Assembly (NCBI GenBank): GCA_964633875.1
Contig: CAZWKL010000006.1
Span: 19,144-83,143, forward strand
Source: an uncultured Pseudomonadales bacterium
Lineage (GTDB): Bacteria > Patescibacteriota > Microgenomatia > UBA1400 > PJMF01
DNA: 64,000 nt
Direction of reading: 5' to 3'
Shown: piece after piece, positions 8,257-47,163 of the stretch
Position numbering within the stretch: position 1 is the first letter of the stretch
Layout: each line of letters starts with the position of its first letter
Position numbers and translations under genes: made by a program
Notes under the pieces: generated by a model
The model's input: the letters and a program-made list of their open reading frames with translations, nothing else
Told to the model about the DNA's origin: nothing
Database searches by the model: none

Positions 8257-8790
8257 TTAATGTTTCATCTGAATGTGGGCAAATAATTCTTGTGTTAATT
8301 CGTTGGTGGCGCGTTCAAATTTTGCTTTTTCATTGGTGGAAAAGCGCTCTAAAACATAATCACTTGAGTCCAGCAAGCGACTGCCATCCCTGGTGTCTAC
8401 GCCCACGCGCACATGCCAAAAATTTTTGGTGCCCAAGTGCTGATAGACAGAAAGCAGACCGTTGTGGCTCTGCGGACCAGTGCCAAACTGGATCTTGTAC
8501 TGGCCAAGTTCCAAATCCAGATCATCGTGAATTACATACAGGTCTTTGGTTTCCGCCTGGTAGTAATCCAAAATTGCCCTCACCGGCTGGCCTGAGAGGT
8601 TCATGTAGGTGGTGGGTTTGGCAAAAAGCAAAGTCTGTTTTTTGCAAATCTGGGCGGAAACCTTGGGTTGATTGGTGAAGTTATCGCAAACAAACTTGCT
8701 GGCAAGCTTATCCAAGACCACAAAACCGGCATTATGCCTGGTTCCCTTAAATGATTCTTCCGGGTTGCCTAGACCAACAATGACTTTCAT
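8257..8790 (-). CDS. pth: peptidyl-tRNA hydrolase
   Basis: Signature MKVIVGLGNPEESFKGTRHNAGF. Start moved to the internal Met (ORF-track start 8844 would overlap the divergent gene). Confidence 0.8.
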   Translation of the reverse strand: MKVIVGLGNPEESFKGTRHNAGFVVLDKLASKFVCDNFTNQPKVSAQICKKQTLLFAKPTTYMNLSGQPVRAILDYYQAETKDLYVIHDDLDLELGQYKIQFGTGPQSHNGLLSVYQHLGTKNFWHVRVGVDTRDGSRLLDSSDYVLERFSTNEKAKFERATNELTQELFAHIQMKH

Positions 8791-17367: not shown

Positions 17368-18561
17368 ATGTTTCAGAGGCGCGCCTTGCTACTAATTATC
17401 TTTATCATAGCACTTGCTGTCAGCATTGTGACACCCCCTGGTGTGCATGCGGCAGACAGCTGTGAAGACTTTGGTGTGTCAGCCGTGGTGGGTCTGGGGG
17501 GAGTATATCAACTGAACCAAATAAATTCTTTGGAGGTGTCCCTAAATGTTACTGAGCCAAATGAATATTATCTTAATATTTTTAGAGGTATACATTGGAG
17601 AGTGATTGAAACAGAAACAAAACTTCCTGATAGCTCAGGTAGATTATCTTTCTTAATTACTGATCCAAGAGCATTTAATCCTGTTGGTCAGGATTGGCTT
17701 TTTACCAAAACTGCAACGTATCATGTTACTCTTAAAAGGTCAGCAGACGCAAACGCTGTCTGCAAGCTTGGAACATACAAAATTGTTTCTGAAAGAAGCT
17801 GTGAAAATATTCTTATCTACACCGAAAGAGGGGGTCAAATGTGCTATGGTGGAGCGGGCACTCAGGGCTGTTTGGCAAAAGATGATGCATTAAAGATACA
17901 AGTAGTGGGAGTAAGAGATGGAATAGATTACTACCAAGATAGAGTAGATATACAAGTAAATGGAACTGGTGCGCCAGGCAATAAAAATAATATTCCACTT
18001 GATTCTTCTGGTAGCACGCAGGTGATCGAATATGGATCGCTAAGGGCTGGTCATTACAGAGTTGTTGTAGAAAAAGCCAGTATTCTGAATGGGTTAGATT
18101 TTTGTACAAAAGACTTTGTAATTAATGACAAGTGTACTGTCTGCCAAGAACAAGCCCCAGATCCTACCATACCGGGAGAAGGACCAGATGAGGTTGCTTT
18201 TCAACTCTGCCGGCAATTACCGGAAGGATCAGATGCATACAACAACTGTATTGAGTGCGCTGAAGGAGAAGAGGGTCAAGAGGGTGTCTGGACTGCAGTG
18301 GGCTGTATTAAAAGAGAGCCGGAATCAATTCTAGCTGAACTGCTAAGTATCGGCCTGACCACAGGTGGTGGAATAGCACTCTTAATGATTCTTGGAGCTG
18401 GTTTTATCTTCAGCACTTCTGCCGGTGATCCCAAGCGTGTTGATCAAGCAAAAGAACTAATAACCAGCGCCGTGATTGGTTTGATTTTTATAATTTTTTC
18501 AATCGCGATGCTTGAATTTATAGGCTTTACAGTACTAAAAATACCTGGTTTTGGAGGTTGA
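17368..18561 (+). CDS. VirB2/TrbC-like T4SS pilin-family protein with large Cys-rich ectodomain (paralog 1 of 11)
   Basis: Signal peptide; about 300-aa Cys-rich extracellular region; C-terminus SAGDPKRVDQAKELITSAVIGLIFIIFSIAML with two TM helices flanking a basic loop. Confidence 0.5.
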   Translation: MFQRRALLLIIFIIALAVSIVTPPGVHAADSCEDFGVSAVVGLGGVYQLNQINSLEVSLNVTEPNEYYLNIFRGIHWRVIETETKLPDSSGRLSFLITDPRAFNPVGQDWLFTKTATYHVTLKRSADANAVCKLGTYKIVSERSCENILIYTERGGQMCYGGAGTQGCLAKDDALKIQVVGVRDGIDYYQDRVDIQVNGTGAPGNKNNIPLDSSGSTQVIEYGSLRAGHYRVVVEKASILNGLDFCTKDFVINDKCTVCQEQAPDPTIPGEGPDEVAFQLCRQLPEGSDAYNNCIECAEGEEGQEGVWTAVGCIKREPESILAELLSIGLTTGGGIALLMILGAGFIFSTSAGDPKRVDQAKELITSAVIGLIFIIFSIAMLEFIGFTVLKIPGFGG

Positions 18562-19133
18562 AACCTATGAAATCTTATTTCAAATATTTTTTCATATTTT
18601 CAGTTCTGACAGCAATTGTGCTGTTCAAATCTCCTGATGTGTTAGCTGAATGTGGATATGGTGTTACAACAGCAACAGGAGATGCGTGTGATCTTCAAAA
18701 CGGCCAAACAAAAAGCTCCGGTTATTTTTACTGTGATGCCGACATGACTCTCTGTTGCACAAAAGCCAGTGAATGTCCGGCAGGTTCTGACCCAATGCCT
18801 GTCAGCCTTAGTCCATATCAAGGCCCCACAACAGAATTTTTCAACGCACTCAACCCTTTATACACTCATGGCAACCAAGAAAGCGCCACCCTCACCACTC
18901 CCGGGGCAGTGGTATCACGTGTCTTGCGTTACGCCCTGCCAATAGCCGGTATGATCCTCTTCGTCATGCTCTTGTGGGGAGGTTTTGAGATCCTGGTTGG
19001 TTCGGCTGGCAAGAAATCCCTGGATGCCGGCAAGCAAAGAATTACCGCCGCTTTTGTTGGCTTCATCCTACTGTTCGTTTCCTACTGGATTATGCAAATT
19101 CTTGAAATTATTTTTGGAATTTCCATCGTTTAG
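18558..19133 (+). CDS. VirB2/TrbC-like T4SS pilin-family protein (paralog 2 of 11)
   Basis: Signal peptide; Cys-rich N-domain; conserved C-terminus GSAGKKSLDAGKQRITAAFVGFILLFVSYWIM. Start overlaps the stop of paralog 1 (ATGA). Confidence 0.5.
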   Translation: MKPMKSYFKYFFIFSVLTAIVLFKSPDVLAECGYGVTTATGDACDLQNGQTKSSGYFYCDADMTLCCTKASECPAGSDPMPVSLSPYQGPTTEFFNALNPLYTHGNQESATLTTPGAVVSRVLRYALPIAGMILFVMLLWGGFEILVGSAGKKSLDAGKQRITAAFVGFILLFVSYWIMQILEIIFGISIV

Positions 19134-21950: not shown

Positions 21951-22535
21951 TTAGCTCTCCGTCCCATACTCAGCTTGCCACAGCACCCGAAATTCTTCTC
22001 TGGCTCTAAATAAATCGGACTCCACAGCCTTACTAGTCCTGTCCAGCTCCCGGGCAATAGCAGCTACTTTTTTGCCTTCGACATACTTCATCACCAGCAG
22101 ATTTTTGTAGCCGCGGCGCATTTTATTGAGCACAAGCCTGACTTGCTGGGAAATTTCATGCGAATCATGGACCTCTCTACTTAACAACCACTCATGAAGC
22201 GGTAACGTTTCCAAGGTTTTCTTGGCGTAAATTTTGCGGTAGTAATCGGCAACTTCATGCCTGGCAATAGAGTTCATCCAGGTCCAAATACTCGAGTCAC
22301 CCCGGAAAAGTGGCAAGTGTTTCAGGCAATTAAGAAAAGTTTCCTGAACTATTTCCTCAGCGTCTTTAGGATTGGAAACTTTCACCAAAACCACCGCCAG
22401 CAGCCGGTCATAATATGAATTGAACCACTCCTGCACCGCCAGTTTTTCACCTGCTCGCAAACGTTCAAGCAGCTGACTGTCTTTTTTAGTAGCTTTGTTG
22501 GTAGTGGCGCCTGTAGCGCCAATATTCCTAACCAT
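21951..22535 (-). CDS. ECF-type RNA polymerase sigma factor (sigma-70 family regions 2 and 4)
   Basis: Region 2-like EEIVQETFLNCLKHLPLF...WTWMNSIARHEVADYY and region 4 HTH LLVMKYVEGKKVAAIARELDRTSKAVESDLFRAR. Confidence 0.75.
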   Translation of the reverse strand: MVRNIGATGATTNKATKKDSQLLERLRAGEKLAVQEWFNSYYDRLLAVVLVKVSNPKDAEEIVQETFLNCLKHLPLFRGDSSIWTWMNSIARHEVADYYRKIYAKKTLETLPLHEWLLSREVHDSHEISQQVRLVLNKMRRGYKNLLVMKYVEGKKVAAIARELDRTSKAVESDLFRAREEFRVLWQAEYGTES

Positions 22536-22580
22536 AGGTACTAGTATACCTCAACTGTGCTGTAGTATAATATTTTGGTG

Positions 22581-22943
22581 ATGTTGAATAAGCTCGTGCG
22601 TCCGATCTATGCCCAATGTGATCCAGGAAAAGGCAATGTCAATTTGGGTGATTGTTTGGTTTTGAGAGATGACAGAACTATTGCCGAGGTGTATTCCGAA
22701 CCCGCCTTCCTCATTAACCTTCTAGCTCAGAACATTTTCGCCATCGCCGGCGTGGTGTTGTTTTTTATGCTTTTGTTAGCAGGATTTAAATTTGTGGCCG
22801 GCGGCAAAAAGGGTGCCGAAGACGCCAAGAGTATTCTTACCACAGCGATTATCGGCTTCATTATCATGTTTACCGCCTACTGGATTGTGGTGTTGGTAGA
22901 AATTATTACTGGGATAAATATTCCTGTTGGACCCGCGGGATAG
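22581..22943 (+). CDS. VirB2/TrbC-like T4SS pilin-family protein (paralog 3 of 11)
   Basis: Two TM helices flanking GGKKGAEDAKSILTTAIIGFIIM. The ORF-track start 22575 is TTG; the ATG at 22581 lies 9 nt after TATAAT (22566-22571). Confidence 0.5.
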   Translation: MLNKLVRPIYAQCDPGKGNVNLGDCLVLRDDRTIAEVYSEPAFLINLLAQNIFAIAGVVLFFMLLLAGFKFVAGGKKGAEDAKSILTTAIIGFIIMFTAYWIVVLVEIITGINIPVGPAG

Positions 22944-22954
22944 GGATATAAGGC

Positions 22955-23374
22955 ATGAGAGCATCAATTACAACCAAACTACTTCTACTGCTTGCTGTTT
23001 TTGTCTTTTTATTGCCCATGGCAACACCGGCATTTTCTCAAAATTTAGGTCACATTTTCCCCCCACCAGGAGTCAATCAATATCAAGCAGAAGCTGGACT
23101 CACCCATGACCAACCAGCCCTAATCTTCTTTCTTTCAAGAATGATTAGGCTAATTACCGTCGTTGTCGGGCTGTGGGTAATTGTTAATATTACCATAGCC
23201 GCCTTTCACTATATTTCTGGCAGTGGTAGCGCGGAAGCTCACGCTAAAGTACGCAATTTATTAACAATGAGTGTGGCAGGGCTGCTCTTAATAATTGCTT
23301 CCTACACTATTGGCGGTATCCTGGGACTGATTTTCTTTGGGGACGCCACTTATATTTTGAATCCGACGATATAG
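22955..23374 (+). CDS. VirB2/TrbC-like T4SS pilin-family protein (paralog 4 of 11)
   Basis: Signal peptide; C-terminal GSGSAEAHAKVRNLLTMSVAGLLLIIASYTI ... LIFFGDATYILNPT. Confidence 0.5.
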   Translation: MRASITTKLLLLLAVFVFLLPMATPAFSQNLGHIFPPPGVNQYQAEAGLTHDQPALIFFLSRMIRLITVVVGLWVIVNITIAAFHYISGSGSAEAHAKVRNLLTMSVAGLLLIIASYTIGGILGLIFFGDATYILNPTI

Positions 23375-23388
23375 AATAGAAAAACTAA

Positions 23389-23955
23389 ATGATAAAAATA
23401 CTGATAAAACTAACTTTAAGTCTAATTATCCTCGCTGGAGTTATGTTTTCTGTTCCAGCTTATGCCTATGCCCAATGTTCACCAGCTACTGAAGGAGATT
23501 GTGTCAATGGATACATTTGTGTTTGTGGAGAAATTGAAGAGTCCGACGGATCAACGCAAACATATTGCTATCGTGACTCCGCACAATACTGTGGTTCAGA
23601 AAAAGGATTGCAGGTAATTGGACCTATTAGGGCCCCTGATGCGGTTGCTCGATTTAACATTATTAGTACTTCGCATGTTGGTTTGGTGCCATTCCTCTCG
23701 ATCATCATCCGCCTCATCACCATTGTCGCCGGCATCTTTACCATGTTGAATTTTGTGGCTGCTGGGGCCAAATACGTGTTTTCCATGGGCAATACTAACG
23801 CCAATGTTGAAGTGCGGGACAAGTTGCTCTTTAGCGTCATTGGCCTGCTGATTATTGTGGCCTCCTACACCATTGCTGCTTTATTCGGACTGATTTTCTT
23901 TGGGGACGCCACTTTTATCTTGAGGCCAACCTTTACTGGAGCTCTTGACTTATAA
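23389..23955 (+). CDS. VirB2/TrbC-like T4SS pilin-family protein (paralog 5 of 11)
   Basis: Signal peptide; Cys-rich N-domain; C-terminal tail ...LIFFGDATFILRPT nearly identical to the tail of paralog 4. Confidence 0.5.
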   Translation: MIKILIKLTLSLIILAGVMFSVPAYAYAQCSPATEGDCVNGYICVCGEIEESDGSTQTYCYRDSAQYCGSEKGLQVIGPIRAPDAVARFNIISTSHVGLVPFLSIIIRLITIVAGIFTMLNFVAAGAKYVFSMGNTNANVEVRDKLLFSVIGLLIIVASYTIAALFGLIFFGDATFILRPTFTGALDL

Positions 23956-23976
23956 AAATAGGAAATATCAGGTAAA

Positions 23977-24384
23977 ATGAAACAAAAGAAAGCGCCTATG
24001 CCTTTTTGGACACTGATCGCACAAACAGAACTCGGTAGATTTGAGCCTCCTACTGATAGCTTTAGTGAAGGCTCTGACACCACCGAGGGAGCCTTGAGCA
24101 ACTTGGAGCTAATTATTTCCAATTCCTTGGGAGTGATCACTGTTTTAGCTGGGGTCTTCTTTATTTTCTATTTCATTATGGGCGCGTTTCAAATTTTGTC
24201 CGCCGGCGGCGATTCCGGCAAAGTCCAAAGCGGCCAGCAAAGAATTACTCAGGCAGTACTTGGCTTGGTGATTTTGGTAGCTGCTTACGCCATTATTGGT
24301 TTGATTAGCACCGTGCTCGGCCTCAGCCTACTCAATCCTGCTCAAGTCATTCAAGAAAGCTTAATTCCAGGAGGAGGATCATGA
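23977..24384 (+). CDS. VirB2/TrbC-like T4SS pilin-family protein (paralog 6 of 11)
   Basis: SAGGDSGKVQSGQQRITQAVLGLVILVAAYAII between two TM helices. Confidence 0.5.
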   Translation: MKQKKAPMPFWTLIAQTELGRFEPPTDSFSEGSDTTEGALSNLELIISNSLGVITVLAGVFFIFYFIMGAFQILSAGGDSGKVQSGQQRITQAVLGLVILVAAYAIIGLISTVLGLSLLNPAQVIQESLIPGGGS

Positions 24385-24797
24385 ACTTAAAGAAAACCGC
24401 CGCCCAAATTACCCTCTCCTTTAGCACCATGTTAGCTAGTACTTCAGCTGCTCTGGCTCAGATTACCAATCCCGCCATCGGCAACTTAAGTGACACTGAA
24501 GAAGCCGAATCGGGCACTTTGTTCGTGCGGATTTTTATTCAGCTCTGGAACGTCATCATTACTGTTGGCGCGATCATTGTAATTTTCATGTTTTTGTGGG
24601 GAGCGATTGAGTGGATTACCGCGGGCGGTGATTCCGGTAAAATTCAGAGCGCCCAAAAGCGGCTTACCCATGCAGCCTTAGGTCTTTTTCTGCTGGTAAT
24701 GTCTTTTGCTATTATTGAATACATTAGTTACATCTTCTTTGATGGAGAATTTAATATTCTTAACTTAACCCTACCAACAGTAGGTTCGGGAGACTAA
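24381..24797 (+). CDS. VirB2/TrbC-like T4SS pilin-family protein (paralog 7 of 11)
   Basis: Signal peptide; WGAIEWITAGGDSGKIQSAQKRLTHAALGLFLLVMSF; overlaps the previous gene by 4 nt. Confidence 0.5.
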   Translation: MNLKKTAAQITLSFSTMLASTSAALAQITNPAIGNLSDTEEAESGTLFVRIFIQLWNVIITVGAIIVIFMFLWGAIEWITAGGDSGKIQSAQKRLTHAALGLFLLVMSFAIIEYISYIFFDGEFNILNLTLPTVGSGD

Positions 24798-24800
24798 ATT

Positions 24801-25307
24801 ATGTTTAAAAAGAAATTGCTAATAATTTTTACCGCTCTGGCTTTGACACTGACTTCGATCTCAGCGCTAATGATCTCTCCGGAGCCAATGCTGGCGGCCG
24901 ACGAGGCTGGCGCTGGCTTTGGTGGTGGAAGCCAGGATGAAAGCAACAAGAGTATTCAGCTCAATCTGGGTCAGGAAGCCATCGAAAAGGAACTTCCTGG
25001 CAGCGCCAGTTCCGAGGAAGGCAGCCAGACTGCTGGGTTTAGTTATTGGCTTGGTCGAGCCATGTCTATTATTTTAATTGTCGCTGCGCTGCTGGTTTTG
25101 GTCAATTTACTTATGGGCGCCATCAAGTGGATTACCGCGGGCGGTGATTCTGGTAAATTGTCTGAGGCACAAAAACAAATCACCAGCTCCATTATTGGTC
25201 TGATCGTGTTGGCAGCGGTAGTCGCCATCTTCCAGCTGTTGACGGATTTTTTACAGTTAGACTTTATTACTTTTACTAACTCTAGTCCGCAGACAGAGCT
25301 TGACTAA
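24801..25307 (+). CDS. VirB2/TrbC-like T4SS pilin-family protein (paralog 8 of 11)
   Basis: Signal peptide; MGAIKWITAGGDSGKLSEAQKQITSSIIGLIVLAAV. Confidence 0.5.
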   Translation: MFKKKLLIIFTALALTLTSISALMISPEPMLAADEAGAGFGGGSQDESNKSIQLNLGQEAIEKELPGSASSEEGSQTAGFSYWLGRAMSIILIVAALLVLVNLLMGAIKWITAGGDSGKLSEAQKQITSSIIGLIVLAAVVAIFQLLTDFLQLDFITFTNSSPQTELD

Positions 25308-25371
25308 GCACTTCAAGTACTAGTATAATTTTGGTATCGTCTGTATCTTGTAAAATTAACAAAAGGAGATT

Positions 25372-25773
25372 ATGACACAAAACCTTAAACGAATTGCTGT
25401 TGGCGCCGGAGCCTTAGCAACCTCAGCAACAGCTGTTTTTGCAGCAGATGAAATAAGTATTAGAACACCTACCGGATTTTTTGATAACATGGGAACCCTG
25501 ATCAGCGGCCTGCTGAACTTTGTGATAATCATCGCCGCTCTCCTGGTATTCATTTACCTACTGTGGGGAGGAATTGAATGGATCACCTCAGGTGGTGATA
25601 AAGGCAAAACCGAGAGCGCTCGGAATAAGATCACCTCTGCTATTATTGGGTTGATCGTCTTAGCCGCCGCCTGGGCGCTACTGACTATCATTCTCAACTT
25701 CCTTGGTTATGACAACCTCCAACAAGTGTTCAACTTAAACATTGAAGAAGCTACTAGCGGAAATCAGAATTAA
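25372..25773 (+). CDS. VirB2/TrbC-like T4SS pilin-family protein (paralog 9 of 11)
   Basis: Signal peptide; WGGIEWITSGGDKGKTESARNKITSAIIGLIVLAAAWALL. Own TATAAT (25324-25329) and RBS AGGAG (25364-25368); followed by an intrinsic terminator. Confidence 0.55.
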   Translation: MTQNLKRIAVGAGALATSATAVFAADEISIRTPTGFFDNMGTLISGLLNFVIIIAALLVFIYLLWGGIEWITSGGDKGKTESARNKITSAIIGLIVLAAAWALLTIILNFLGYDNLQQVFNLNIEEATSGNQN

Positions 25774-25795
25774 GAAGAACTAGTAATAGTTTCGC

Positions 25796-25825
25796 AAAAA
25801 CCCCCTTTTACTAGGGGGTTTTTGG
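25796..25825 (+). terminator. Rho-independent terminator after pilin paralog 9
   Basis: AAAAACCCCCT-tttact-AGGGGGTTTTT: 6-bp GC stem, 6-nt loop, T-run downstream and A-run upstream (potentially bidirectional). Confidence 0.6.
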
Positions 25826-25848
25826 TTAAAATAGGTTATAATAACTCC

Positions 25849-26409
25849 ATGAAACAAATGTTATTGCTACTTATTCTGGCGGCAGCCGTGGTATTTTTAG
25901 CTGGCAACGCTAACGCTGATAGTCCTGAAAATTTAGCCAGCAACCGCCTGTACACGATTGTGGATCAAGAAACCGGAGAAGTGGTGAGCACCACCTCCGC
26001 GGAAACTATTTACTATGCTACCACTTCTGCCTTAAGGGCCGATTCCACCTCTGTGCCTACAACTACTACGCCTAGACGAGGACTTTTTTACCCGATTGAC
26101 ATTATCATTCCACGGGGTTTCTTCGATAACATTTCTGAACTAATCAATGGCCTTCTCCGGCTCTTAATGATTGTTGCCGCTCTTTTGGTTTTTGTTTACC
26201 TGCTTTGGGGAGGGATAGAGTGGATTACTTCCGGCGGTGACAAAGGCAAAACCGAGAGCGCTCGGAATAAAATTACCTCTGCTATTATTGGTTTGATTAT
26301 TATGGCTGCCGCCTGGGCACTGCTGACTATCGTGTTGAATTTCCTGGGCTACGCCGGTTTGGAAGACGTGCTCAACCAAAACATCAATGAAGCCGTGTCA
26401 AGACAGTAG
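25849..26409 (+). CDS. VirB2/TrbC-like T4SS pilin-family protein (paralog 10 of 11)
   Basis: ORF-track 25822..26409 starts inside the terminator; the Met at 25849 begins signal peptide MKQMLLLLILAAAVVFLAG. The C-terminal 80 aa are about 85% identical to paralog 9. Confidence 0.55.
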   Translation: MKQMLLLLILAAAVVFLAGNANADSPENLASNRLYTIVDQETGEVVSTTSAETIYYATTSALRADSTSVPTTTTPRRGLFYPIDIIIPRGFFDNISELINGLLRLLMIVAALLVFVYLLWGGIEWITSGGDKGKTESARNKITSAIIGLIIMAAAWALLTIVLNFLGYAGLEDVLNQNINEAVSRQ

Positions 26410-26831
26410 TGTTATACTATAGCTATATGTTTAAGCGCCTTGCTTTCACTTTGTTCACATTTCTCACTGCCAGTGCGTTGCTACTAAGCGTGCCGGCTCA
26501 AGCCGCCGCCCAATCGCAGGTGTGGGATGGTGTCTGCGTAGAAGAAGGAGATGTCGCTACCATCCAGGGCCTAGAGTGCTTGATTGCTAACATTTTTGCC
26601 GTGATTATCACTCTGATTGGCTTTGCCGGCTTTGTGATGTTCATTATTGGTTCTTTTCGTTGGATGCTGTCAGGTGGCAGCAGTAAAGGCGTGGAAACCG
26701 CCCGCAACACTATGACTTACGCGGTGGTGGGATTGGTAGTAGCCCTCAGTGCTTTTATTATTCTGAACCTAATTGCCGACTTTACCGGAGTAGGAGTGAT
26801 TACTAAATTTTTCATCCCCAGGTCCAATTAA
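26409..26831 (+). CDS. VirB2/TrbC-like T4SS pilin-family protein (paralog 11 of 11)
   Basis: Signal peptide; IGSFRWMLSGGSSKGVETARNTMTYAVVGLVVALSAFIIL; start overlaps the previous stop. Confidence 0.5.
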   Translation: MLYYSYMFKRLAFTLFTFLTASALLLSVPAQAAAQSQVWDGVCVEEGDVATIQGLECLIANIFAVIITLIGFAGFVMFIIGSFRWMLSGGSSKGVETARNTMTYAVVGLVVALSAFIILNLIADFTGVGVITKFFIPRSN

Positions 26832-27069: not shown

Positions 27070-30000
27070 GTGTCAAAACACAGAATTTTTCTTGCCAGCC
27101 TGTGGTTGTTTATCTGTGCTGCGGTAGTGAGCGCCGGGTTTTTGCCGGCGGCTGCCAAGGCTCAGGTGGTGGGATCACACTTGGGCGTGGGTGATATTGG
27201 CGGCCAGATCAATAATATTCAAATTCTGCAGCAAAATGGCGCCGGCAGCGGTTTTCCCGTTACGATGATGTTGAATATTAATATGGCTGGTCAGGATCAA
27301 CAGGCTATGCACAATCTGGCAGCAGCCGTGGAAAGCGCCGGGTTTCTGCCCATTGTCAGACTAACGCACGTCTGTTCTGCTTTTGAAAGCGGCGTCACCC
27401 CCAGCAATGCGGTGCAAAACGCCAAAAATGCCTTTGGATCCAGTGCGTTGATTGTTTACGGCAACGAAGTCAACAATCGCGAGGCAGAGTGTCCGAACTG
27501 GACCAAGTACGTTGCTGATTACAACAGCATCGCCGACAAAACCAACGTTTCTCCCGCGGCTCTAGATTATTACATGGGCAATCCTGCTTATACCGTAGAG
27601 GTCTTTTTTAATTCCACTCCCGGAGCCAGAGAAATCTATGAAAACTCAACCATCAATGCGGCCAACGCCTATGAATGCGTCGGCACCTCCGATCAAAACA
27701 CGATGGCGTGTGAGTCTCCCTGGGAAGCCAATACTATGGCAGTAGGCTACCAGGCTTACAGTGGGCAAATTTTTCTAACCGAGTTCTCTCTTTCTCCGGA
27801 AGGCCGGGTGCCCAACTCCCCAGACACCGACTTGCAAAAAGTCGCTCAGTTTATCCAGGAAAAAGCGGCTGACACCGGCGCCAGCCTGATCACTCCGCTG
27901 GTGCGCAACGTTTGTAACAACGAAGGCGAGTGGCTGTTGTATGTGAACGGACGCTTGTTTACCATTGTGGGCACTGATGTGACTGAGAATTGTGAGGGCC
28001 GGGCCGGGGTGGGTGAGGGCTATGATTTGAGTGATTTTCCCGACTATGGCTATAATCAGTCGTATTATTATTTACATCCAATTAGAGGTATTCACCCCGA
28101 CACCGATCCTGACGGCAGAAAGGTGTCTGTAACCCGAGCTGATCTGGCCAGCCAAGGCTATGAAGCTTACTGCGCGGCTGAGCCAACCACCATCAAGTTG
28201 GACGTCAACACCAGAGATCTTATCAATAGATTTTTAGCCAGTAATCCCACCGGTGTGAGTGCAACCAGAGACTCAACCTACGTGCTAGACTCCAGCAGCG
28301 GGCAATTCCCACTTTTTCGCGATACAACAGGAAAAAAATATCTTACTACCTCGATTGAAGAGTTTTTTGGCTTCAAAGATGTTTACACCGACGACGGCTA
28401 CTCGGTCATGGAACTCAATACCGCCCCCATCAATACTCTGCTTTCGCAAGAGCAAAAATGTATCCAGGGAGTGGACATTCTCCGAAATATTCAACTGATG
28501 TGTGAGCGGCTGGAGGATCCTCGTGCTAACTGCGCTCTCCTGGAAAACCAAATTCCCGGGACAAATTATAATGTAAGCACCCTTTTGGACGATGTAGCTA
28601 AAGTCATTCCTGGCTACAGAGCGGGCAAAATCGGCGAACAGTGCCGGATGCTCTTTTCAGACCAAATCCCCGAGTTTGCTATGGAAGATCCCGAGCTACC
28701 AGTTTTCAAAAAAGCCATCACCAACGTGCCACTCAACATTGACCGTTCTTTCCGCCTGGCGTTTTTGGTGGCCTCAATTGAACAGCGGCCACAAACCAGC
28801 GCTTTCAACTTTTTTTCTTTTTCAGAAGCTGCTCAACCAAAACATGAAGTGCTGATTGTGGCTTTCAAAATCCCTGATATTCTCACCAACAAAGGTGGCG
28901 GTGAAGCCTCCGGACACCAATTTTTTAATGATTCTGCCACTCTAACCAGAGATGCCTTGGTACCACAACAATTTAGAACGGCTTTTTCCGATCCTAATGA
29001 AGATGAAGTTGACAGCTGCCATGACCAAATTCAAGGAAACGACTTTACCAAATATGGTTTTGACCAGCAGAGTCTTAATCGCAAAATTTGTACCGGCATC
29101 AATGCGCACAATGCCTCGGTGCAAAATCCTGATAGTCCGATTTACTGCTTGAGTGGTAGCGGCGACACGCCAGAGGAGCTGGAGGGTTTGGAAGGATCAG
29201 CTGCTTGTAAAGATATTCTGGGTAAAGCCGTGGTGGACCTAATCAACGGCAATACACCCAGCTGCAACAACATGCAATCCGAGCCGGTTTTAGAAGTGCT
29301 GCAGGCAGCTAACATTATTCCGCCAGATTTGAACGACGGCTCGCGCCTCTTTAATCCTGGCTACGGTTTTGGCAATGACGTGCTCAACTACATTTTTACG
29401 CAAAATCTCACTCCTCAGCGTGATGAAAGCACTTTTACCTCAATTTTTAATATTGTTGGCAGCGCTTTTGATAATGCGGAAAACGAAACAGCGGCGGTGG
29501 ATTTTTTCCTGGTCTATCCGGTGGGCTATGAGCTGGACTCGGTGACTGAAGTGCTGAAAAATACTTTTTTTACTGTTCACCAGATTGCTGAACTCGAGGA
29601 AAGTACCAACCGCTCGCGCTTTGAGGCCAAAGGCTTTGCTTCCGGCTTGAGCGGTGCCACTTTCAGTCACACTTTTAATGAATTGCCTTCCAGCGGCAAC
29701 TGCCAGGAGTCTACTATCTTGCTTGAGGAAGACCCTCTTACAGGGCTGCCAATCAACCCTCCTCAGGTAATAACAGTCCTCAACTGTGAACAAACTTTCA
29801 ATATTTCGGTCAATGAAGAAGGTGCTGGGGGGCTGAGTGTGTTGGGTGCCAGGCTGGGTTTTTGGATGAGAAATATTCAACAAACTCTTAACGGTCATTT
29901 TAGCAACGCTTCCGCTTACATCGCTTCCTGCGCTACCACTGAGGAGTTTTTGCTGGGCCGGTGTGCTGGCCGGGCAGTGGCTTCGCCTCCAGGCTCAAAC

Positions 30001-30498
30001 TTGGGCGGTTCGGAAATAGTCAGCCCGCTTTGCGGCCGCGATTATCCCATCAAAGCCGATGACATCGTGCCGGATTACCATTCGCAAACCATTCTTAATC
30101 GCAGCAGCGCTGCTTATCGCACCCAAGTACCAACAGAACCCGATGTCGGTCGCGCCATGTACTACGCTGCCGGAGTGATGAACCGGGTACTGCAAAACCG
30201 CATTGCCTGGAAGCAAATTCCTCCTGGCGCTGTTTCTGACTGTGAAGGTGGCGATAGTAAGTACCGCGGCTGTGTGGCGCTCCTGCGGGCTGGCGATATC
30301 GGGCGGGAAGTTTATCTCAAAAGACCTGGCCAAAATGCTGAAGGTCCGTACTTGGTCATTGATGTAGCAGCAGAAAAAGATATTGCTTGCTTATTGGAAC
30401 GCAACTGGATAGTAGATGTAGACTGGGGTACGGCGCAAAGATGGAACATGAAAGGGCCGGTGGATGCGCAGATTTGCGAAACCGCCGCTTGTCCGTAG
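27070..30498 (+). CDS. large secreted Cys-containing protein of unknown function (1142 aa)
   Basis: GTG start 6 nt after an extended -10 TGATATAAT (27055-27063); N-terminal signal peptide; many Cys; no recognised catalytic motif. Confidence 0.45.
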   Translation: MSKHRIFLASLWLFICAAVVSAGFLPAAAKAQVVGSHLGVGDIGGQINNIQILQQNGAGSGFPVTMMLNINMAGQDQQAMHNLAAAVESAGFLPIVRLTHVCSAFESGVTPSNAVQNAKNAFGSSALIVYGNEVNNREAECPNWTKYVADYNSIADKTNVSPAALDYYMGNPAYTVEVFFNSTPGAREIYENSTINAANAYECVGTSDQNTMACESPWEANTMAVGYQAYSGQIFLTEFSLSPEGRVPNSPDTDLQKVAQFIQEKAADTGASLITPLVRNVCNNEGEWLLYVNGRLFTIVGTDVTENCEGRAGVGEGYDLSDFPDYGYNQSYYYLHPIRGIHPDTDPDGRKVSVTRADLASQGYEAYCAAEPTTIKLDVNTRDLINRFLASNPTGVSATRDSTYVLDSSSGQFPLFRDTTGKKYLTTSIEEFFGFKDVYTDDGYSVMELNTAPINTLLSQEQKCIQGVDILRNIQLMCERLEDPRANCALLENQIPGTNYNVSTLLDDVAKVIPGYRAGKIGEQCRMLFSDQIPEFAMEDPELPVFKKAITNVPLNIDRSFRLAFLVASIEQRPQTSAFNFFSFSEAAQPKHEVLIVAFKIPDILTNKGGGEASGHQFFNDSATLTRDALVPQQFRTAFSDPNEDEVDSCHDQIQGNDFTKYGFDQQSLNRKICTGINAHNASVQNPDSPIYCLSGSGDTPEELEGLEGSAACKDILGKAVVDLINGNTPSCNNMQSEPVLEVLQAANIIPPDLNDGSRLFNPGYGFGNDVLNYIFTQNLTPQRDESTFTSIFNIVGSAFDNAENETAAVDFFLVYPVGYELDSVTEVLKNTFFTVHQIAELEESTNRSRFEAKGFASGLSGATFSHTFNELPSSGNCQESTILLEEDPLTGLPINPPQVITVLNCEQTFNISVNEEGAGGLSVLGARLGFWMRNIQQTLNGHFSNASAYIASCATTEEFLLGRCAGRAVASPPGSNLGGSEIVSPLCGRDYPIKADDIVPDYHSQTILNRSSAAYRTQVPTEPDVGRAMYYAAGVMNRVLQNRIAWKQIPPGAVSDCEGGDSKYRGCVALLRAGDIGREVYLKRPGQNAEGPYLVIDVAAEKDIACLLERNWIVDVDWGTAQRWNMKGPVDAQICETAACP

Positions 30499-33484: not shown

Positions 33485-36400
33485 TTACTTATTAGGATCT
33501 TGCTCCTCAATTGTGGGCTCTCTAAGCCAATTGTCATATATTGTTTTAAATTCTGGACCCCACATATTTTCAAAAGTCCTGCTCAAATCATGTGATCTGA
33601 CCTCTCTCTCATCATCAAAGAACAATCGCCACGGTCTTCCAATTGAATGCCAGCCATCTAATTGCTCAATTACTTTCTGTAACGGATGGTCTCCTTTAGA
33701 ATATACCTCTTGTGGCAAAGTGGCAGCAGAACCCAAAACTTTCTGGGCCACTTCTGCAAAGCGCTTTGCTTTAGGTTTTAAATTTTCTCTCCTAAACCTA
33801 ACACTGGGAGGAGCTCCTTCAGGAACGCCCTCGCCTAAAAGTGCCGAATATTTATTATAAATCTTTTTCAAATAGACAACACTCATTAATTGAATGGTGT
33901 TTGCAAAGGTTCTCTCTCCCTTAGGCAGACATATCCACATGCCCTTAAAATTTTTAATCCTATCAACCAACTGGCCCATTGCCGTATCTAGTTGATCAAC
34001 ACTATGAATGGTACCAAAATCACCATCAACAAATTTATCAAATTCTCGAATTTCTTCCTGCATGGTCCTAAACTGATAATATGTGGGGACATCTTTCATC
34101 TTTTCTCCACGCCATTGGCCATTAATCCAGTCCCAAAGTGTAGGTTGAAATTTCAGATCTTCATGAAGTTGAACATAATCAATGCCATATGGAGAGAAGT
34201 CTGCAATCATCCGATTTCTTACCATAACAAACGTTTCTAGATTCTTAACGCTTTTATTACTGCTTTTCTTCTCCCTCTCCGTTGAGTTTGGTGGCTCCAT
34301 AGCCGCATATATGGAGCGCTCATACACCACCTCAGTTGCACTAAACTTTTCCTTCAACGGGGAAAACGTTTTGTTCATCCAACTTCTAAACCCGGACGGC
34401 AATCCTGAAGGAATAGGGAGACTGTACCTAGTAATAGAAGAAACCTTTTCTGGTAACCGAGTAACCATTGAATAAACTCTGTATTTGGGAAGCGAGGCGC
34501 CTGATTGAGCCTTATAAAGTATGGCTGCCATTGGTGAAGCATCAGCCGAAGCGGTTGCATCAAAACCAGGAACGGGTGATCCTTGATACATTGCGTATTC
34601 AGGAATATATGCATCAGATCTCATTTCAGACACAACTACAAAACGCCTCATAGCCAACTTGATGAAGTCTGGAAAATGGGCTAATTCCGGAAACTCTCGC
34701 TCTAAAACTTGATTAATAGTAAACACTCCATTTGGGTTGGTGTGTTCATCATAGACCAAATTACCTGTTGGATTACCTTTTGCAGCGTAATTCCAGTGTC
34801 TATCTTTCTCATCCTGAACATCAGCGTCGTGTTTCCTACTTCTTGTAAAAGGCCCATTGAAAAGTTCATTTCTGAGAAAATCCACAACTTCTTTAATATT
34901 AATTTTGTGTTCAACTCCCAATTTGTCTTTTATAGCAAAATCACCAAAGTGCCGAAACTTTCGGAGATGATCCATTAGAATAAATGATCCCGCCGCTTCT
35001 CTGGCTTTTGTGACATCTGCCCACGCCAACAGCGCTGGCCAGTCACTCCCTCCAGCCTCATCAACGGCATCGCGAAGAAGAATGGAGATATCAAGAAGCT
35101 CTCTTTCTTCTTCATTATTAAAATGCTCCTTGGCAATGCGCTTCATTGCGTCAACAGCATCGGTAACTTTGTTGTCTCCCCTAGTTCCACGCATTTTGTC
35201 GTTGTCTTCTAACATCTGCCAAAGCTCATCCATCTTTTTTATTTGATCCGTTTTCAAAACTTCGCTTTTAGCAGTTTCAATTGCTTCATTGATTCTCCTT
35301 ACTGCTTCACCATAACGTCCTCCAAGCTTGGTGGGACCAACAAGTTTTTCGATTGCGTCAGTGGTAGAACTATGACTGTAATTGGTTTGATCAAGATAGC
35401 CAGCAGCATCTATTGCTTTATAAGCATTTTCAAGGTTAGTTTTGAGAGCCTCTAAATCATCTTTTTCGTGCGCCCCGGGAGCAGAGCTATGAGGCGCAAT
35501 GTTATTAAGGTCTATTGCCTCAACCTTCTCAATTTCATCCACAAAGAGTTTAACATCCGCATTCCACTGATCAGTTTCTTTTTTAGCCTCAGCTTCTTCT
35601 TTCTTTTTGTCAATCTCCTTCAGCAAGGAGCGCATTTTTTCCAACAAATCTTCTGCCTGTCTTGAAGCATTTCTTAAGGCAACTAGTCTATTTACTTGTT
35701 CTGAATTTATTCTTTCGTTGGCATGCTCAACATGAATATTTACCAGTTCTTGCAGATGAACGATTTTGTCAATATTAGTATTTAAGTCCGCCTCAATAGC
35801 ATTAATTCTAGCCTGACTCACAGAGTAATCCAGTCCCCTCAGCTCAGTTTCATATGCGGCTATTCTGGGATTTTCTAATGCCATGAGCTCCAACAACTCG
35901 GTTAAATATTTTGGCGGCCAATCGTTATCATCCTCGGCTTTGGGTGGTTGTTCTGGTGGGGGAGGTTGTTGCGGAGGTTGCTCCTGACCGCCTTGGGCTT
36001 TCTTCTCAGCCTGCCCTAGATAAAAAAGTCGTTGCTCACGAAGTTTTTTTACTAAAGCGCTGGCGAAATTTGAGGGCAATACATCTCTTTTTTCAACATA
36101 GTACTCCTGAGCAATTTCGCGTAGCCTTTCAATTGCTATCTCTTCAGGATTATCGCCCAATAAATCAAGGTCATATTCGTGACGAAGATTTACAACTTTT
36201 TCTCGGACAGAGCGAATTATTTGCTCAGGAGTGCTGTTTTCTTCTTCTGCCTTCGGTTCAGCCTCTTCATTGATGGGTTGCTGTTCTTTTTCCGAATCGT
36301 CTTCTTCCATCTCGGCCCCACCGAGTGGCTCTTCCCCAATTTCAGTTTCTGGTTCTGTTTGAGGCTCATCTTCAAGAGCAGATGCTTCGTCGTGAAGATC

Positions 36401-36628
36401 TCCTAAGTCTATTGAGTCAGTTACAGCAAAAAAGTTTGCATTGTCTTTGAGAAACTTTTCAGCTGCTGCTATTGCTTTAAGCGCGGCGGATTTTTTTTGA
36501 TCTTTAATAAGCTGTTTGACCTCTTCCACATAAGCATCAAACTCGACAGAAGGATTAGAAAATTCAACAGGTTCATTGTCAGGCTGAATATCAGGCTGAT
36601 GGTCGGGACGAGGTTGTTCGGACATCAA
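33485..36628 (-). CDS. large acidic coiled-coil protein of unknown function (1047 aa)
   Basis: Long uninterrupted ORF with an E/D-rich N-terminus, a PPQQPPPPEQPP tract and extended helical regions; no enzymatic motif seen. Confidence 0.4.
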   Translation of the reverse strand: MMSEQPRPDHQPDIQPDNEPVEFSNPSVEFDAYVEEVKQLIKDQKKSAALKAIAAAEKFLKDNANFFAVTDSIDLGDLHDEASALEDEPQTEPETEIGEEPLGGAEMEEDDSEKEQQPINEEAEPKAEEENSTPEQIIRSVREKVVNLRHEYDLDLLGDNPEEIAIERLREIAQEYYVEKRDVLPSNFASALVKKLREQRLFYLGQAEKKAQGGQEQPPQQPPPPEQPPKAEDDNDWPPKYLTELLELMALENPRIAAYETELRGLDYSVSQARINAIEADLNTNIDKIVHLQELVNIHVEHANERINSEQVNRLVALRNASRQAEDLLEKMRSLLKEIDKKKEEAEAKKETDQWNADVKLFVDEIEKVEAIDLNNIAPHSSAPGAHEKDDLEALKTNLENAYKAIDAAGYLDQTNYSHSSTTDAIEKLVGPTKLGGRYGEAVRRINEAIETAKSEVLKTDQIKKMDELWQMLEDNDKMRGTRGDNKVTDAVDAMKRIAKEHFNNEEERELLDISILLRDAVDEAGGSDWPALLAWADVTKAREAAGSFILMDHLRKFRHFGDFAIKDKLGVEHKINIKEVVDFLRNELFNGPFTRSRKHDADVQDEKDRHWNYAAKGNPTGNLVYDEHTNPNGVFTINQVLEREFPELAHFPDFIKLAMRRFVVVSEMRSDAYIPEYAMYQGSPVPGFDATASADASPMAAILYKAQSGASLPKYRVYSMVTRLPEKVSSITRYSLPIPSGLPSGFRSWMNKTFSPLKEKFSATEVVYERSIYAAMEPPNSTEREKKSSNKSVKNLETFVMVRNRMIADFSPYGIDYVQLHEDLKFQPTLWDWINGQWRGEKMKDVPTYYQFRTMQEEIREFDKFVDGDFGTIHSVDQLDTAMGQLVDRIKNFKGMWICLPKGERTFANTIQLMSVVYLKKIYNKYSALLGEGVPEGAPPSVRFRRENLKPKAKRFAEVAQKVLGSAATLPQEVYSKGDHPLQKVIEQLDGWHSIGRPWRLFFDDEREVRSHDLSRTFENMWGPEFKTIYDNWLREPTIEEQDPNK

Positions 36629-36719
36629 AAAGAATTATACCACCACTTGAGAAATTACGCACATAAGCAATAGCTTTTTATGCCAACCGCGCCAACCGTG
36701 TTTGCGGTATAATTGCCTC

Positions 36720-39700
36720 ATGGCTAATGCGGACGCACCTGCTCTACCCTTAACCAAACTCGAGAATGTAAAATACTTCAAGACCGACGTTTCTCCAGAG
36801 GATTTTAAGGAATTTCTCACCACCCTCCCTCAAGCCATTTCCGGCAGTGGCGAACTGCAAAAAGGGGTGAAGGTTTTTGTACCAGGCAACGAAAAATTTA
36901 ACAGCAGAAAACTTGAGGCCGCTGACGATTCTGATTTGGTTTCAGAAGAACACAGTGCTGAAGCGCTTTATTATTCCGATATCGTCCGGCTCATTTCCGA
37001 CTCGATGAGATGGCTCATGGAAAATGGCACTCATGAAGAAATTGGGAACTTAAGAGACCGGTTTGACCACCTAAACAGAAATCCCAACGCCATCTTAACC
37101 CAGTGGGGAGGGGTTAAGGCTGGTGGCGAAAGCGCTGTTTCCGAAATAGAAATTCAGAAATTTAGAGGTGACATTCCGGAGCTGATCAACTATGTTTTGT
37201 ATTTTGCCAAAAAAGAGTTTAGCGACCTGGCTACGGAGCCATCGGAAAAAGATGGGGCGGCAGCGGCTCCAGGGAAACCGGCTAAAGGCGATGATCAGGC
37301 TGTCGTTGGGGGAAAGCCAGAGGCAGACGGAGGGGCTGATCAAGCTGGCTCAGCAGAGCCGGATGAGCAACGCCCTCAACCTCCCAGTCCGGAACAAGAA
37401 GAAGCCCACAAGAAAAAAATCCTCTACGAAGCCACCTGGATCTACAACCAGGCGCTGCACGATTTTTTCATCACTCACGGCATTGATTACGACTATCTCG
37501 AAACTCACCCAGAGTTGCGCGATCTAATTCTCTCCGAAACTGTCAAAATCCTGGAAAGCCGCTCCGAGCGCGAGCTGATGATTCTTTTCGCCAACCCAGG
37601 CAGAAGGTTGGAAATACTCAGAGAGCTTTACATCAACCTGGCCCAATCGCCGCAACTTGCCGTTGGCTTGCAAAATTTTTACGACACCTACGCGCAAGCG
37701 CTACCCGAGGAGGCTCGCCAGGAATTTCTGGCTAGCTTGTCCCGCTCTGAAAACGTTCTTTCCCAGGCCATTCAAGGCAAAATGGTTTCCAACGATTACC
37801 AACTGCGCCAACAAGTCGCGGCAGTTTTGGGCACCGACAGCCCCACCTTGATTGGCGTGGGTTCATCGGAGTTCACCCAAATTATGGGCTCGATTCAGAT
37901 TAATATTGATGCGCTCCTAATCGGTCAGGGTGTTGATTTCCTGATAGTTAGCTCTGATGGAAACGTCGAAAAGACTAGCGAAAATCCCCACAACGCCATT
38001 TGGCTGATTCAAAAAATGAGCGATGACCATTTGCTGTTGATGCTCGGTGTTCCTCCCGATATCCGTCTTTCCGCGGAAGCAGTAGAGCGGTTGAGAAAAA
38101 TCGTCATCAATTACGCCAGAATGAGGGCGATTTATCTGGCTGAGCGCGCGGAAAATCTGGCGATTGCCGAGGGAATCAATCCGCTGAATGAGGCAGATGC
38201 TAATGCTATCGCCGCCAATGACACGGTCACTGCCAAGCGAGCACTACTAGCGCCTCATCAAGATACGGCTGGATTAATCAAGGCAGAAGAAGACTCGGGA
38301 AATGGCGGCGAAGTCGTTTATGGAGCTTTAACCCAAAATATTAAACAGCTTGAGGCCAAACGGCAAGCTCAATGGCACTCACTTTCCAAGGAAGAACAAG
38401 AGCTCATCCTGGTATTTTTGGGCAAAGAAATTGGGGCAGAGTATTACGAAGTCCCTTTTGAAATCGGGCTGTTTAGACTGCAAGCGCTGATAGCTGAAGC
38501 TGAAAAAACCGCGGTTTCACAGGCAGAACTGCTCAAATACCAGGCAACCTCACAAGCGATGATGAGTGAGGCTTTGTACGCCTTTGCCTACGAACAAGAA
38601 ATTGCTGCTAGGCAGGAGTTTCTGCGCCAGGAAATTTTAGGAGAGTACTTCGCCGCCGTTGATGAAGCAGAGCTGGCTGCCATGGCTGAAGAACTTGACT
38701 ACGAGAATGAGGCGCAACTCTATGAAGAAAGTCTGAGTAATGTTGTGCGCGCTCATGAAGGTGCGGGAGAGCGAGCTGAGGCAGGAGCAGCGGGCGGGCG
38801 TTTCGGCAGGTTGGGAAGAATCGGCGATCGTTTTAGAAACCGGTTTGCAAAAGAAGGCCGCTTTTCTCCAAAACAAAAGTTGCTTGGTGCTATTAAAAAA
38901 ACCGGAGCTAGAAAACTGGGCAGTGCGGCGGCTCAAAAACTAGGTGGTTTGATCGGTGGCCCAGTGGGCGCGGCGCTTGCCAAAGCGCTAACAGGAAAAA
39001 ACAGAAAGTGGGTGGGTGGCGCTCTGGCTGGAGCCGGGTTGTTGGCCTTAAAAGGCCTTGCCGCGATGTTGCAGGGCGGTAAAGCCTTGCTGATTGGCTT
39101 GGGAGCTGGCGGCGCTACTGGGGGAGCGCTGTTGTTGTTGGGTTTAACCGGGCCGGTTGGAGCGGTGATCCTTGGTGTTGGTGCGGGTTTAGCTGCCGCT
39201 GGCGGGTATAGTTTATTGAGCGGAGCTGGAACCGCAGAAGGAGCGGCCGGTCTTGGCGGCGGTGGCTTGATTGGAGGAGCGGGCGGAGTTCCGCCTGCCG
39301 CTTACACCGCTATGCCAGCAGAAGCTGTAAGTGGCGCGGAGGCCACAACTGGCGGCGCGGCGGCGGCCGCTATCACCACAACTACCGCTACAGCCGCCGG
39401 CGCCGCCAGTTGGACTACAGTCGCTAGCTTCCCCACTGCGGTCTTAATTCCCATTTTAAGCCTAGCGCTGACAGCAGTAGCCAGCCTCATCGTCATCCTC
39501 ATCATCCAAGGCTCCTTCCTCATCACCCTGCCGCCGTCTCTTAGTAGCAGAACTTACACCAGCAACTTGAGCGGTTTTGAGGGCTGTTGGCCCACCACCG
39601 GCAGAATAACTTCATATCGCACCTACATGATCGGTGGTGGTGGTAGCAACCATGCCACTGTGGGTGCTGGTAAGTACTTACATGGCTACGAGGGTCCGGG

Positions 39701-44807: not shown

Positions 44808-44901
44808 ACCCCAAGTCCGGGTCTCAGGTTTGGGCAGAAGCAAACTTGGCTTTTAAGGCCGGTCTTTATCAGTCCGTGCAATTAAAGTACAATGTCAATT
44901 G

Positions 44902-46965: not shown

Positions 46966-47163
46966 TAAATCAAGCCTTTTCTCTACTTGCTTAATGTGGA
47001 AAACTTTGTGTATAAAGTGAGTTGAATTTCATTAAGTCTTTTTAGACTAACCTGCCCCTGAGTTTTAACCAATGTCCTGGAGAATTAGCTCACGGGTTGT
47101 AGCTTCGACTAAGTTTTGGCTTCGACTAAAAAAAATACAAACAAAACGAACAAGAGAAGGAAA

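Follow-up and report, generated by a model that had tools for sequence, protein, structure and literature searches.

The pilin array and the module common to p7 and p8

The 64-kb stretch of DNA analysed here (the window) contains nine tandem small open reading frames (ORFs) on one strand (p1–p9, positions 22575–26831, + strand), which encode paralogues of the VirB2-like pilins of type IV secretion systems (T4SS). The array consists of p1 (22575–22943), p2 (22955–23374), p3 (23389–23955), p4 (23977–24384), p5 (24381–24797), p6 (24801–25307), p7 (25372–25773, 133 amino acid residues), p8 (25849–26409, 186 residues, with an alternative TTG start at 25822) and p9 (26409–26831). Searches with Pfam profile hidden Markov models revealed that seven of the nine members pass the gathering score of PF18895 (“Type IV secretion system pilin”), with p2 sub-threshold and p3 without a match. 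The best scores in the array are those of p7 (45.4 bits) and p8 (47.8 bits), against a cut-off of 26.6, while TrbC/VirB2 (PF04956) gives sub-threshold matches only (15–16 bits). Based on these comparisons, p7 and p8 are assigned to the VirB2-like (PF18895) T4SS pilins and are predicted to form filaments.

The genome of the window (W) was compared with that of the nearest other species (L001, GCA_964515115.1, contig CAZESB010000015.1), with a strain of the same species from an independent assembly (L168, SRR13001968; 98–100% nucleotide identity to the window apart from the p3 and p4 segments described below) and with the related loci L002 and L005; L001, L002 and L005 belong to different lineages.

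p7 and p8 share a 3′ module of 102 codons, located at 25453–25758 in p7 (+ strand, residues 28–129) and at 26095–26400 in p8 (+ strand, residues 83–184). The two copies align without gaps and are 75.5% identical in amino acids and 69.3% in nucleotides, with a third-position identity of 43%; an independent repeat search recovered the same similarity (25498–25751 versus 26140–26393, 74%). The original prediction, which was made from the sequence of the window, described the last 80 or so codons of the two genes as about 85% identical, which is a fair estimate, as 83% of the last 73–76 aligned residues are identical and the 57-residue cores it quoted match at 53 positions (93%). The perfectly identical 29-nt stretch that it reported was found at 25600–25628 and 26242–26270. 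The N-termini are unrelated, with 27 (p7) and 82 (p8) residues ahead of the homologous module and about 56 and 111 ahead of the near-identical core, and that of p8 is Thr-rich (12 Thr in 59 residues), as had also been noted. p7 and p8 are the most similar pair in the array, the other pairs having at most 53% amino acid identity compared with 75.5% over the module. The independent assembly of L168 contains the same p7 and p8 sequences, so that an assembly artefact can be dismissed.

Age of the p7/p8 duplication

Synonymous and non-synonymous divergence (the proportion of synonymous differences, pS, and the rates dS and dN) were calculated by the Nei–Gojobori method. Over the p7/p8 module pS is 0.71–0.72, dS about 2.3–2.4 and dN 0.18–0.20 (pS 0.71 and dN 0.18 for the first 100 codons), giving a dN/dS of about 0.08. 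All 36 paralogue pairs of the array have a pS of at least 0.60, and p7/p8 is as saturated as the rest. The high protein identity of p7 and p8 is thus explained by purifying selection, since pS is saturated and dN is low, and not by youth. The nucleotide identity of the module is indeed higher than that among the other paralogues (69% versus 40–55%), yet the excess comes from the conservation of amino acids and not from recency.

The gene order is conserved as well. A sigma factor gene, p1–p9 and a gene for a protein of about 1100 residues follow one another in the same order in L001, L005 and L168, and in L002 this holds for p7–p9. The arrangement of p7, a terminator and p8 is conserved in L001, L002, L005 and L168. 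The p8 orthologue of L001 has 86% identity along its whole length, the N-terminal extension included. This extension is orthologous and collinear in L001, and it can still be recognised in L002 and L005. Orthologues of p7 and p8 in W and L001 are themselves separated by a dS of about 1.1–1.7. Among 83 scored loci (the window and the fetched loci), 28 have a p7-like gene with a longer p8-like gene after it. A scan of metagenome contigs for closer relatives of p8 gave none above 73% over part of the protein, and did not recover the contig of the window either. Taken together, the sequence comparisons indicate that p7 and p8 are ancient tandem paralogues and not recent duplicates, and that the similarity of their 3′ modules appears to be held mainly by purifying selection.

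A probable short conversion tract within the module

One internal segment of the module departs from this saturation. The tract lies at 25600–25649 in p7 (+ strand), where it codes for KGKTESARNKITSAIIG, and at 26242–26291 in p8 (+ strand); the two copies are identical at 47 of 50 nucleotides, the first 29 being an exact match. In the codons that cover it (module codons 50–66) the pS between W p7 and W p8 is 0.24, compared with 0.74 between the W and L001 orthologues of either gene, and the L001 paralogues differ by only 0.08. Outside the tract the W paralogues are saturated. In the 5′ part of the module (codons 1–25) their pS is 0.94, with 0.81 for the L001 paralogues and 0.51 (p7) and 0.87 (p8) for the orthologues; in codons 67–100, which encode helix 2 and the tail, the corresponding values are 0.68, 0.79, 0.46 and 0.63. 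At the end of helix 1 (codons 26–49) the W paralogues differ by 0.86 and the L001 paralogues by 0.00, with 0.66 (p7) and 0.50 (p8) between orthologues.

The synonymous states within the 29-nt stretch follow the genome and not the gene: GGC, ACC, GAG, CGG and AAT occur in both W copies, while GGT, ACT, GAA, CGC and AAC occur in both L001 copies. The L001 paralogues contain an exact run of 116 nt (L001 positions 7680–7795 and 8334–8449), within a segment identical at 128 of 129 nucleotides. Shuffling of codon columns showed that the 29-nt run of W is longer than expected by chance (p = 0.003–0.004; 0.0036), as did a test on runs of identical codons (p = 0.01), both tests being post hoc; for the 116-nt run of L001 p is <5e-5. 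The cross-genome controls were not significant, with runs of 20 nt between W p7 and L001 p8 (p = 0.17) and 17 nt between L001 p7 and W p8 (p = 0.26). In a four-taxon partition of the module, 11 sites have p7 and p8 alike within W and alike within L001 but different between the two genomes, and 9 of these, including 7 that lie within the tract, fall in module nucleotides 93–189 (nucleotide 1 being window position 25453 in p7). The 28 sites that support orthology all lie outside nucleotides 66–204.

These results suggest, with a probability of about 0.8, that p7 and p8 are old paralogues that have been patched by short gene conversion in a tract of about 50 nt, on top of purifying selection. Conversion in W appears to be confined to this internal tract and does not cover the whole 3′ module, so that the proposal of gene conversion in the original prediction holds for the tract (pS 0.24 versus 0.74 between orthologues) and fails for the remainder of the module (pS 0.68–0.94). 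The W tract is younger than the split from the L001 lineage and older than the split from L168, while a separate and more recent conversion, of 116–129 nt, took place in the lineage of L001.

Several points weigh against this interpretation. The W tract is short, the p value of about 0.004 was obtained post hoc, and the evidence amounts to 9 + 5 consecutive identical codons in an invariant peptide. Codon bias specific to each genome inflates the frequency of identical codons within a genome, the baseline being 30–50% of identical residues. The site partition is mostly driven by L001, whose tract alone excludes orthology-type sites inside it; for this reason the partition was down-weighted and the region-wise contrast in pS was preferred. 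L001 is the single outgroup species close enough for timing the W event, and both W copies of the tract are equally far from it, which favours neither p7 nor p8 as the donor. Across 28 genomes the loop of p7 is more conserved than that of p8, which hints at a p7 to p8 direction.

Probable conversion tracts elsewhere in the array and exact repeats in related loci

Two further pairs of the window contain exact tracts. p2 and p3 share 28 nt (23324–23351 and 23887–23914, + strand) that code for GLIFFGDAT (shuffle p < 5e-5 against a background identity of 57%), and p5 and p6 share 25 nt (24610–24634 and 25126–25150, + strand) that code for WITAGGDS (p < 5e-5, background 53%). The former pair carries the tail LIFFGDAT(Y/F)IL(N/R)PT, which had been correctly recognised as common to two paralogues; these were numbered 4 and 5 in the original prediction and correspond to p2 and p3, as two additional pilin-like genes lie upstream. 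The corresponding tract of L001 p2 and p3 extends over 45 nt and differs from that of W in three synonymous states. The tail of L001 p3 is of the p2 type (ATYILNPTI), while W, L168 and L005 retain the p3-type ATFILRPT, which indicates that the direction in L001 was from p2 to p3.

Exact direct repeats of at least 20 nt between array members were found in 52 of 121 non-redundant related loci, with lengths up to 260 nt, and most of them fall in the stretch coding for WITSGGDKGK...ARNKIT. As a rough control, 19% of cross-genome locus pairs matched for GC content have any common 20-mer, orthologues counted in. Much longer cases between neighbouring pilin genes include a 260-nt exact repeat in L123 (2098–2357 and 2552–2811), a chain of exact repeats of 32 + 80 + 29 + 56 + 20 nt in L129 (2409–2635 and 3087–3313) and a 93-nt exact repeat in L059 (3–95 and 367–459). 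Such repeats point to conversion that happened very recently or else to genuinely recent duplication.

Replacement of the p3 ectodomain between strains

The region encoding the signal peptide and Cys-rich ectodomain of p3 (23375–23700, + strand) is replaced in L168 by an unrelated allele (L168 positions 4030–4340). Over this region W and L168 are 48% identical in nucleotides and 36% in amino acids, while the anchor of p3 is 100% identical in nucleotides and the flanks 98–100%. The breakpoints fall immediately after the stop codon of p2 and where helix 1 begins. The W allele is of the L001 type (91% nucleotide identity) and the L168 allele is distantly similar to that of L005 (47% amino acid identity); a search for further p3 alleles gave only the four close-clade sequences (W, L001, L168 and L005 types). 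No second copy of either ectodomain type was found by tblastn in the 64-kb window or the L168 locus, which argues that the donor was not another member of the array. The replacement is one between strains and not between paralogues.

A smaller difference between the strains occurs in the N-terminal region of p4 (approximately 24037–24150), where about 20 mostly synonymous differences fall within some 110 nt (80% identity versus 98–100% around it). L168 agrees with L001 at several of the differing sites, and the patch looks like a small imported recombination segment.

Alternative explanations for the similarity of p7 and p8

That no recombination took place, and that chance together with codon bias produced the 29-nt identity in a peptide that is invariant and under strong selection, is unlikely. 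All amino acids of the tract are identical, the baseline of same-codon usage within a genome is high, and the permutation p values are only about 0.004–0.01 and post hoc, all of which would fit this explanation. However, L001 encodes the same peptide with other codons at 5 of 9 positions and its two paralogues again match exactly, the contrast between paralogues and orthologues in the tract is large (pS 0.24 versus 0.74) while the p7-by-p8 controls across genomes are non-significant, and p2/p3 and p5/p6 reach p < 5e-5 in the same window. It is hardly credible that the stretch was kept identical as a conserved RNA or DNA element. A candidate element was the palindrome CCGAG-AGCG-CTCGG (CCGAGAGCGCTCGG) in the 29-mer, and a terminator scan flagged CCGAGCGCTCTCGG and TTTTGCCTTT on the minus strand in both p7 and p8. 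This terminator-like palindrome was rejected, as its stem is only 5 bp and it is lost from both copies of L001 (ACTGAAAGCGCTCGC), and likewise from L002 and L005, although the encoded protein stays the same.

Recent copying of the 3′ module or of the whole of p8 from p7, followed by replacement of the N-terminus, would account for the pair being the closest in the array (75.5% versus at most 53% amino acid identity). The recent duplication proposed initially is nevertheless contradicted by the synonymous saturation outside the 50-nt tract (pS 0.68–0.94) and the third-position identity of 43%, and by the presence of both genes, the terminator and the p8 extension in L001, L002, L005 and L168, with orthologues at a dS of at least 1 from W; such copying is highly improbable. 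Shuffling of ectodomains from paralogue to paralogue, through recombination at the junction of ectodomain and anchor, is suggested by unrelated N-termini standing beside similar anchors and by the breakpoint of the p3 replacement at the start of helix 1. It is very unlikely, because the N-termini of p7 and p8 are stably orthologous across lineages, all detected tracts lie within the anchor or tail with none across the junction, and the p3 replacement allele is absent from the rest of the 64-kb window. The proposal that ectodomains are swapped onto a constant anchor was accordingly not borne out for p7/p8, where p8 and its L001 orthologue are 86% identical from end to end, where a related extension can be made out in L002 and L005, and where the tract lies inside the anchor, away from the junction with the ectodomain.

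Predicted structure of p7 and p8

p7 consists of a signal-peptide-like N-terminus and two long helices joined by a short basic loop, SGGDKGKTESARNK. In the AlphaFold2 model the helices span residues 40–72 and 77–111, with a predicted local distance difference test (pLDDT) score of 85–95. The loop is nearly invariant across 28 orthologues. p8 has a helical hairpin of the p7 type, likewise modelled with high confidence (helices 95–127 and 132–165 in its AlphaFold2 model), which follows a Thr/Ser-rich N-terminal extension of about 60 residues that itself follows a signal peptide. In both models the helices are linked by the inter-helix loop SGGDKGK. The extension of mature p8 has 12 Thr and 7 Ser per 59 residues and is modelled with low confidence (pLDDT 32–49) as three short strands, to which no fold could be assigned. 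The putative signal peptide cleavage sites, placed by eye only, are AVFA/AD in p7 and ANA/DS in p8.

A Foldseek search of the Protein Data Bank (PDB) with the p7 model gave no match at E ≤ 0.001. The best relevant match was the conjugation pilus of Aeropyrum pernix (8dfu; E = 5.1, template modelling score normalised to the target 0.65), helical hairpins being not discriminating. A profile search of the PDB sequences gave 0 matches.

Promoters and terminator around p7 and p8

A promoter-like site lies upstream of p7 (25300–25329, + strand). It has the form TTGACT-18-TATAAT, matches 11 of 12 consensus positions and is followed by the Shine–Dalgarno (SD) sequence AAAGGAG. The hexamers and the SD sequence are invariant in W, L001, L002 and L005. 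Between p7 and p8, as the original prediction had recognised, is a strong intrinsic terminator (25795–25824, + strand), a hairpin followed by a T-run, which the scan called at 25802–25818 plus the T-run. The 57-nt stretch that contains it folds at −23.7 kcal/mol (z −4.7), and the CCCCC/GGGGG hairpin and T-run are kept in all four genomes (W, L001, L002 and L005).

The “fresh promoter” said to precede p8 stands only in part. The sequence TATAAT is found at 25837–25842 (+ strand), 6 nt upstream of the ATG of p8 in W, and is conserved 6–8 nt ahead of the ATG across W, L001, L002 and L005; it has no −35 element and no SD sequence. The promoter scan made no call, and a canonical sigma-70 promoter for p8 was rejected. 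The conserved TATAAT may serve p8 as a −10 box, in which case its mRNA would be leaderless and begin right behind the terminator of p7. p7 alone combines a near-consensus promoter, a strong SD sequence and its own terminator, all kept in the four genomes; together with the most conserved loop of the family, these suggest a major, highly expressed subunit, and p7 is the probable major pilin.

Genomic context and taxonomic placement

The array is adjoined by a divergent gene for a sigma factor of the extracytoplasmic function (ECF) type (21951–22535, − strand; Pfam Sigma70_r2, Sigma70_r4_2 and Sigma70_ECF), which has the same position in L001, L005 and L168. The T4SS core genes are on the same strand as the array, about 16–18 kb downstream of it, and encode a PrgI/VirB3-like protein (42195–43460, + strand; Pfam PrgI) and a VirB4-like ATPase (44899–46965, + strand; Pfam P-loop_TraG and AAA_10). 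They are followed by dnaA (47116–48738; Pfam Bac_DnaA) and dnaN (49035–50159; Pfam DNA_pol3_beta).

Two genes upstream of the array, at 17368–18561 (397 residues) and 18558–19133 (191 residues), have sub-threshold PF18895 matches at their C-terminal ends, giving 11 pilin-like genes in the window. Downstream of both are uppS and an amino-acid kinase gene, and L001 has them in synteny. Between the array and the VirB4-like gene are three genes for very large proteins, at 27070–30498 (1142 residues), 33485–36628 (1047 residues) and 36702–40940 (1412 residues). The first two have no Pfam domain, and the first directly follows p9 in all relatives, where it is 1085–1124 residues long. The third has two weak Pfam matches, both below threshold: one to M23 peptidase with 26.3 bits (cut-off 28.7) and one to NAGPA with 23.0 bits (cut-off 25).

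The relatives retrieved with p8 are metagenome-assembled genomes (MAGs) labelled Pacebacteria, Woesebacteria, Collierbacteria or Patescibacteria. A locus of the Patescibacteria type is also present in many third-party annotation (TPA) MAG records (L008–L087) labelled ‘uncultured Pseudomonadales bacterium’, and in one labelled ‘Limisphaerales’; the labels on these records look like taxonomy errors in the public record. The PF18895 matches, the downstream VirB4 and PrgI genes and the adjoining dnaA identify the locus as the chromosomal T4SS locus of a Patescibacteria genome of the Microgenomates/Pacebacteria type, situated near the replication origin and carrying VirB2-like genes in tandem, which fits the VirB2 arrays published for Patescibacteria (PMC12102498).

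Discussion

In the mechanism proposed here, the 3′ module would encode a helix-loop-helix with two roles, as the membrane anchor of the subunit and as its packing element in the filament. Now and then, non-reciprocal homologous recombination between adjacent copies would overwrite a few tens to about 130 nt, centred on the most conserved stretch, which runs from the end of helix 1 through the basic loop into the beginning of helix 2. Such RecA-type recombination would probably be seeded at codons whose nucleotide identity is kept high enough by selection on the peptide, and the length of the tract would be limited because the saturated divergence of the flanks blocks extension of the heteroduplex. 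In F- and T-pili of known structure, VirB2-type subunits turn the loop between their helices towards the lumen and their termini to the outside. If the pilins of the array have this topology, conversion may be of benefit in that subunits which assemble together would retain one and the same loop, facing the lumen and contacting the machinery, while their surface N-termini diverge. The parts of this mechanism that were observed are the old duplication, the mosaic of the module, the synonymous states common within a genome but not between orthologues, and the independent events in sister lineages.

Short-tract gene conversion and the concerted evolution of duplicates are known from other bacteria, for example from tufA/tufB in Salmonella and from rRNA operons. 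As in those cases, the paralogues of the window have common synonymous states within a genome that differ between species, and form a mosaic of converted and diverged parts. Unlike them, the tracts are of 25–130 nt, fall in the most conserved codons of otherwise saturated paralogues and are local, not gene-wide. In the pilE/pilS system of Neisseria, silent promoterless cassettes donate variable regions to one expression locus. The array resembles this system in consisting of pilin genes that undergo non-reciprocal recombination and combine a constant region with variable, surface-exposed regions. It differs in the protein family, which is that of type IV pilins in Neisseria and VirB2-like here, and in that the converted part is the constant region. 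The nine array genes each have their own start codon and all look expressible, judging from sequence, and no silent cassettes of the pilE/pilS type were found in the 64 kb of the genome and the L168 locus.

The array itself is of a published kind. A survey of Patescibacteria (PMC12102498, Microb Genom 2025) described 441 VirB2-like arrays of 2–11 genes, which are widespread in the phylum and abundant in Microgenomatia, with an average within-array identity of 25% and a maximum of 54%; one such array was reported to be essential in a cultured Saccharibacterium. The locus described here agrees with these arrays in its small PF18895/TrbC-like proteins, its tandem array of nine genes plus two sub-threshold copies, the proximity of VirB4 and PrgI/VirB3 to dnaA/dnaN, the Microgenomates-type lineage and the high divergence of the paralogues. 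It is unlike them in the identity of the p7/p8 pair (75.5% over the module compared with the maximum of 54%) and in that short conversion tracts can be demonstrated; the phrase “gene conversion” occurs 0 times in the survey. As cited there, the VirB2 paralogues of Anaplasma phagocytophilum and the trwL arrays of Bartonella also represent tandem amplification and diversification of T4SS pilin genes, with a proposed role in host-surface interaction or variation. These organisms are diderm intracellular pathogens with systems of the MPF-T type, and the comparison with them is one of published descriptions.

Conversion inside such arrays and strain-level replacement of ectodomains are thus the new details. 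The gene-conversion process itself is ordinary population genetics. That ancient, individually conserved paralogues trade short tracts in their helix-loop-helix argues for joint constraint, such as co-assembly in one filament or a common assembly machine, and against their being redundant spares. The strain-level replacement in p3 suggests that diversifying pressure acts on the N-termini, the parts predicted to be exposed at the surface. It is possible, though doubtful at present, that the array evolves in two modes at once, with short-tract conversion keeping the loop and anchor identical and N-terminal ectodomains being exchanged between strains as whole alleles, as seen for p3 (23375–23700) between W and L168. 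If so, recombination in the array would allow these episymbionts to vary how they recognise their host, or to escape surveillance by phage or host.

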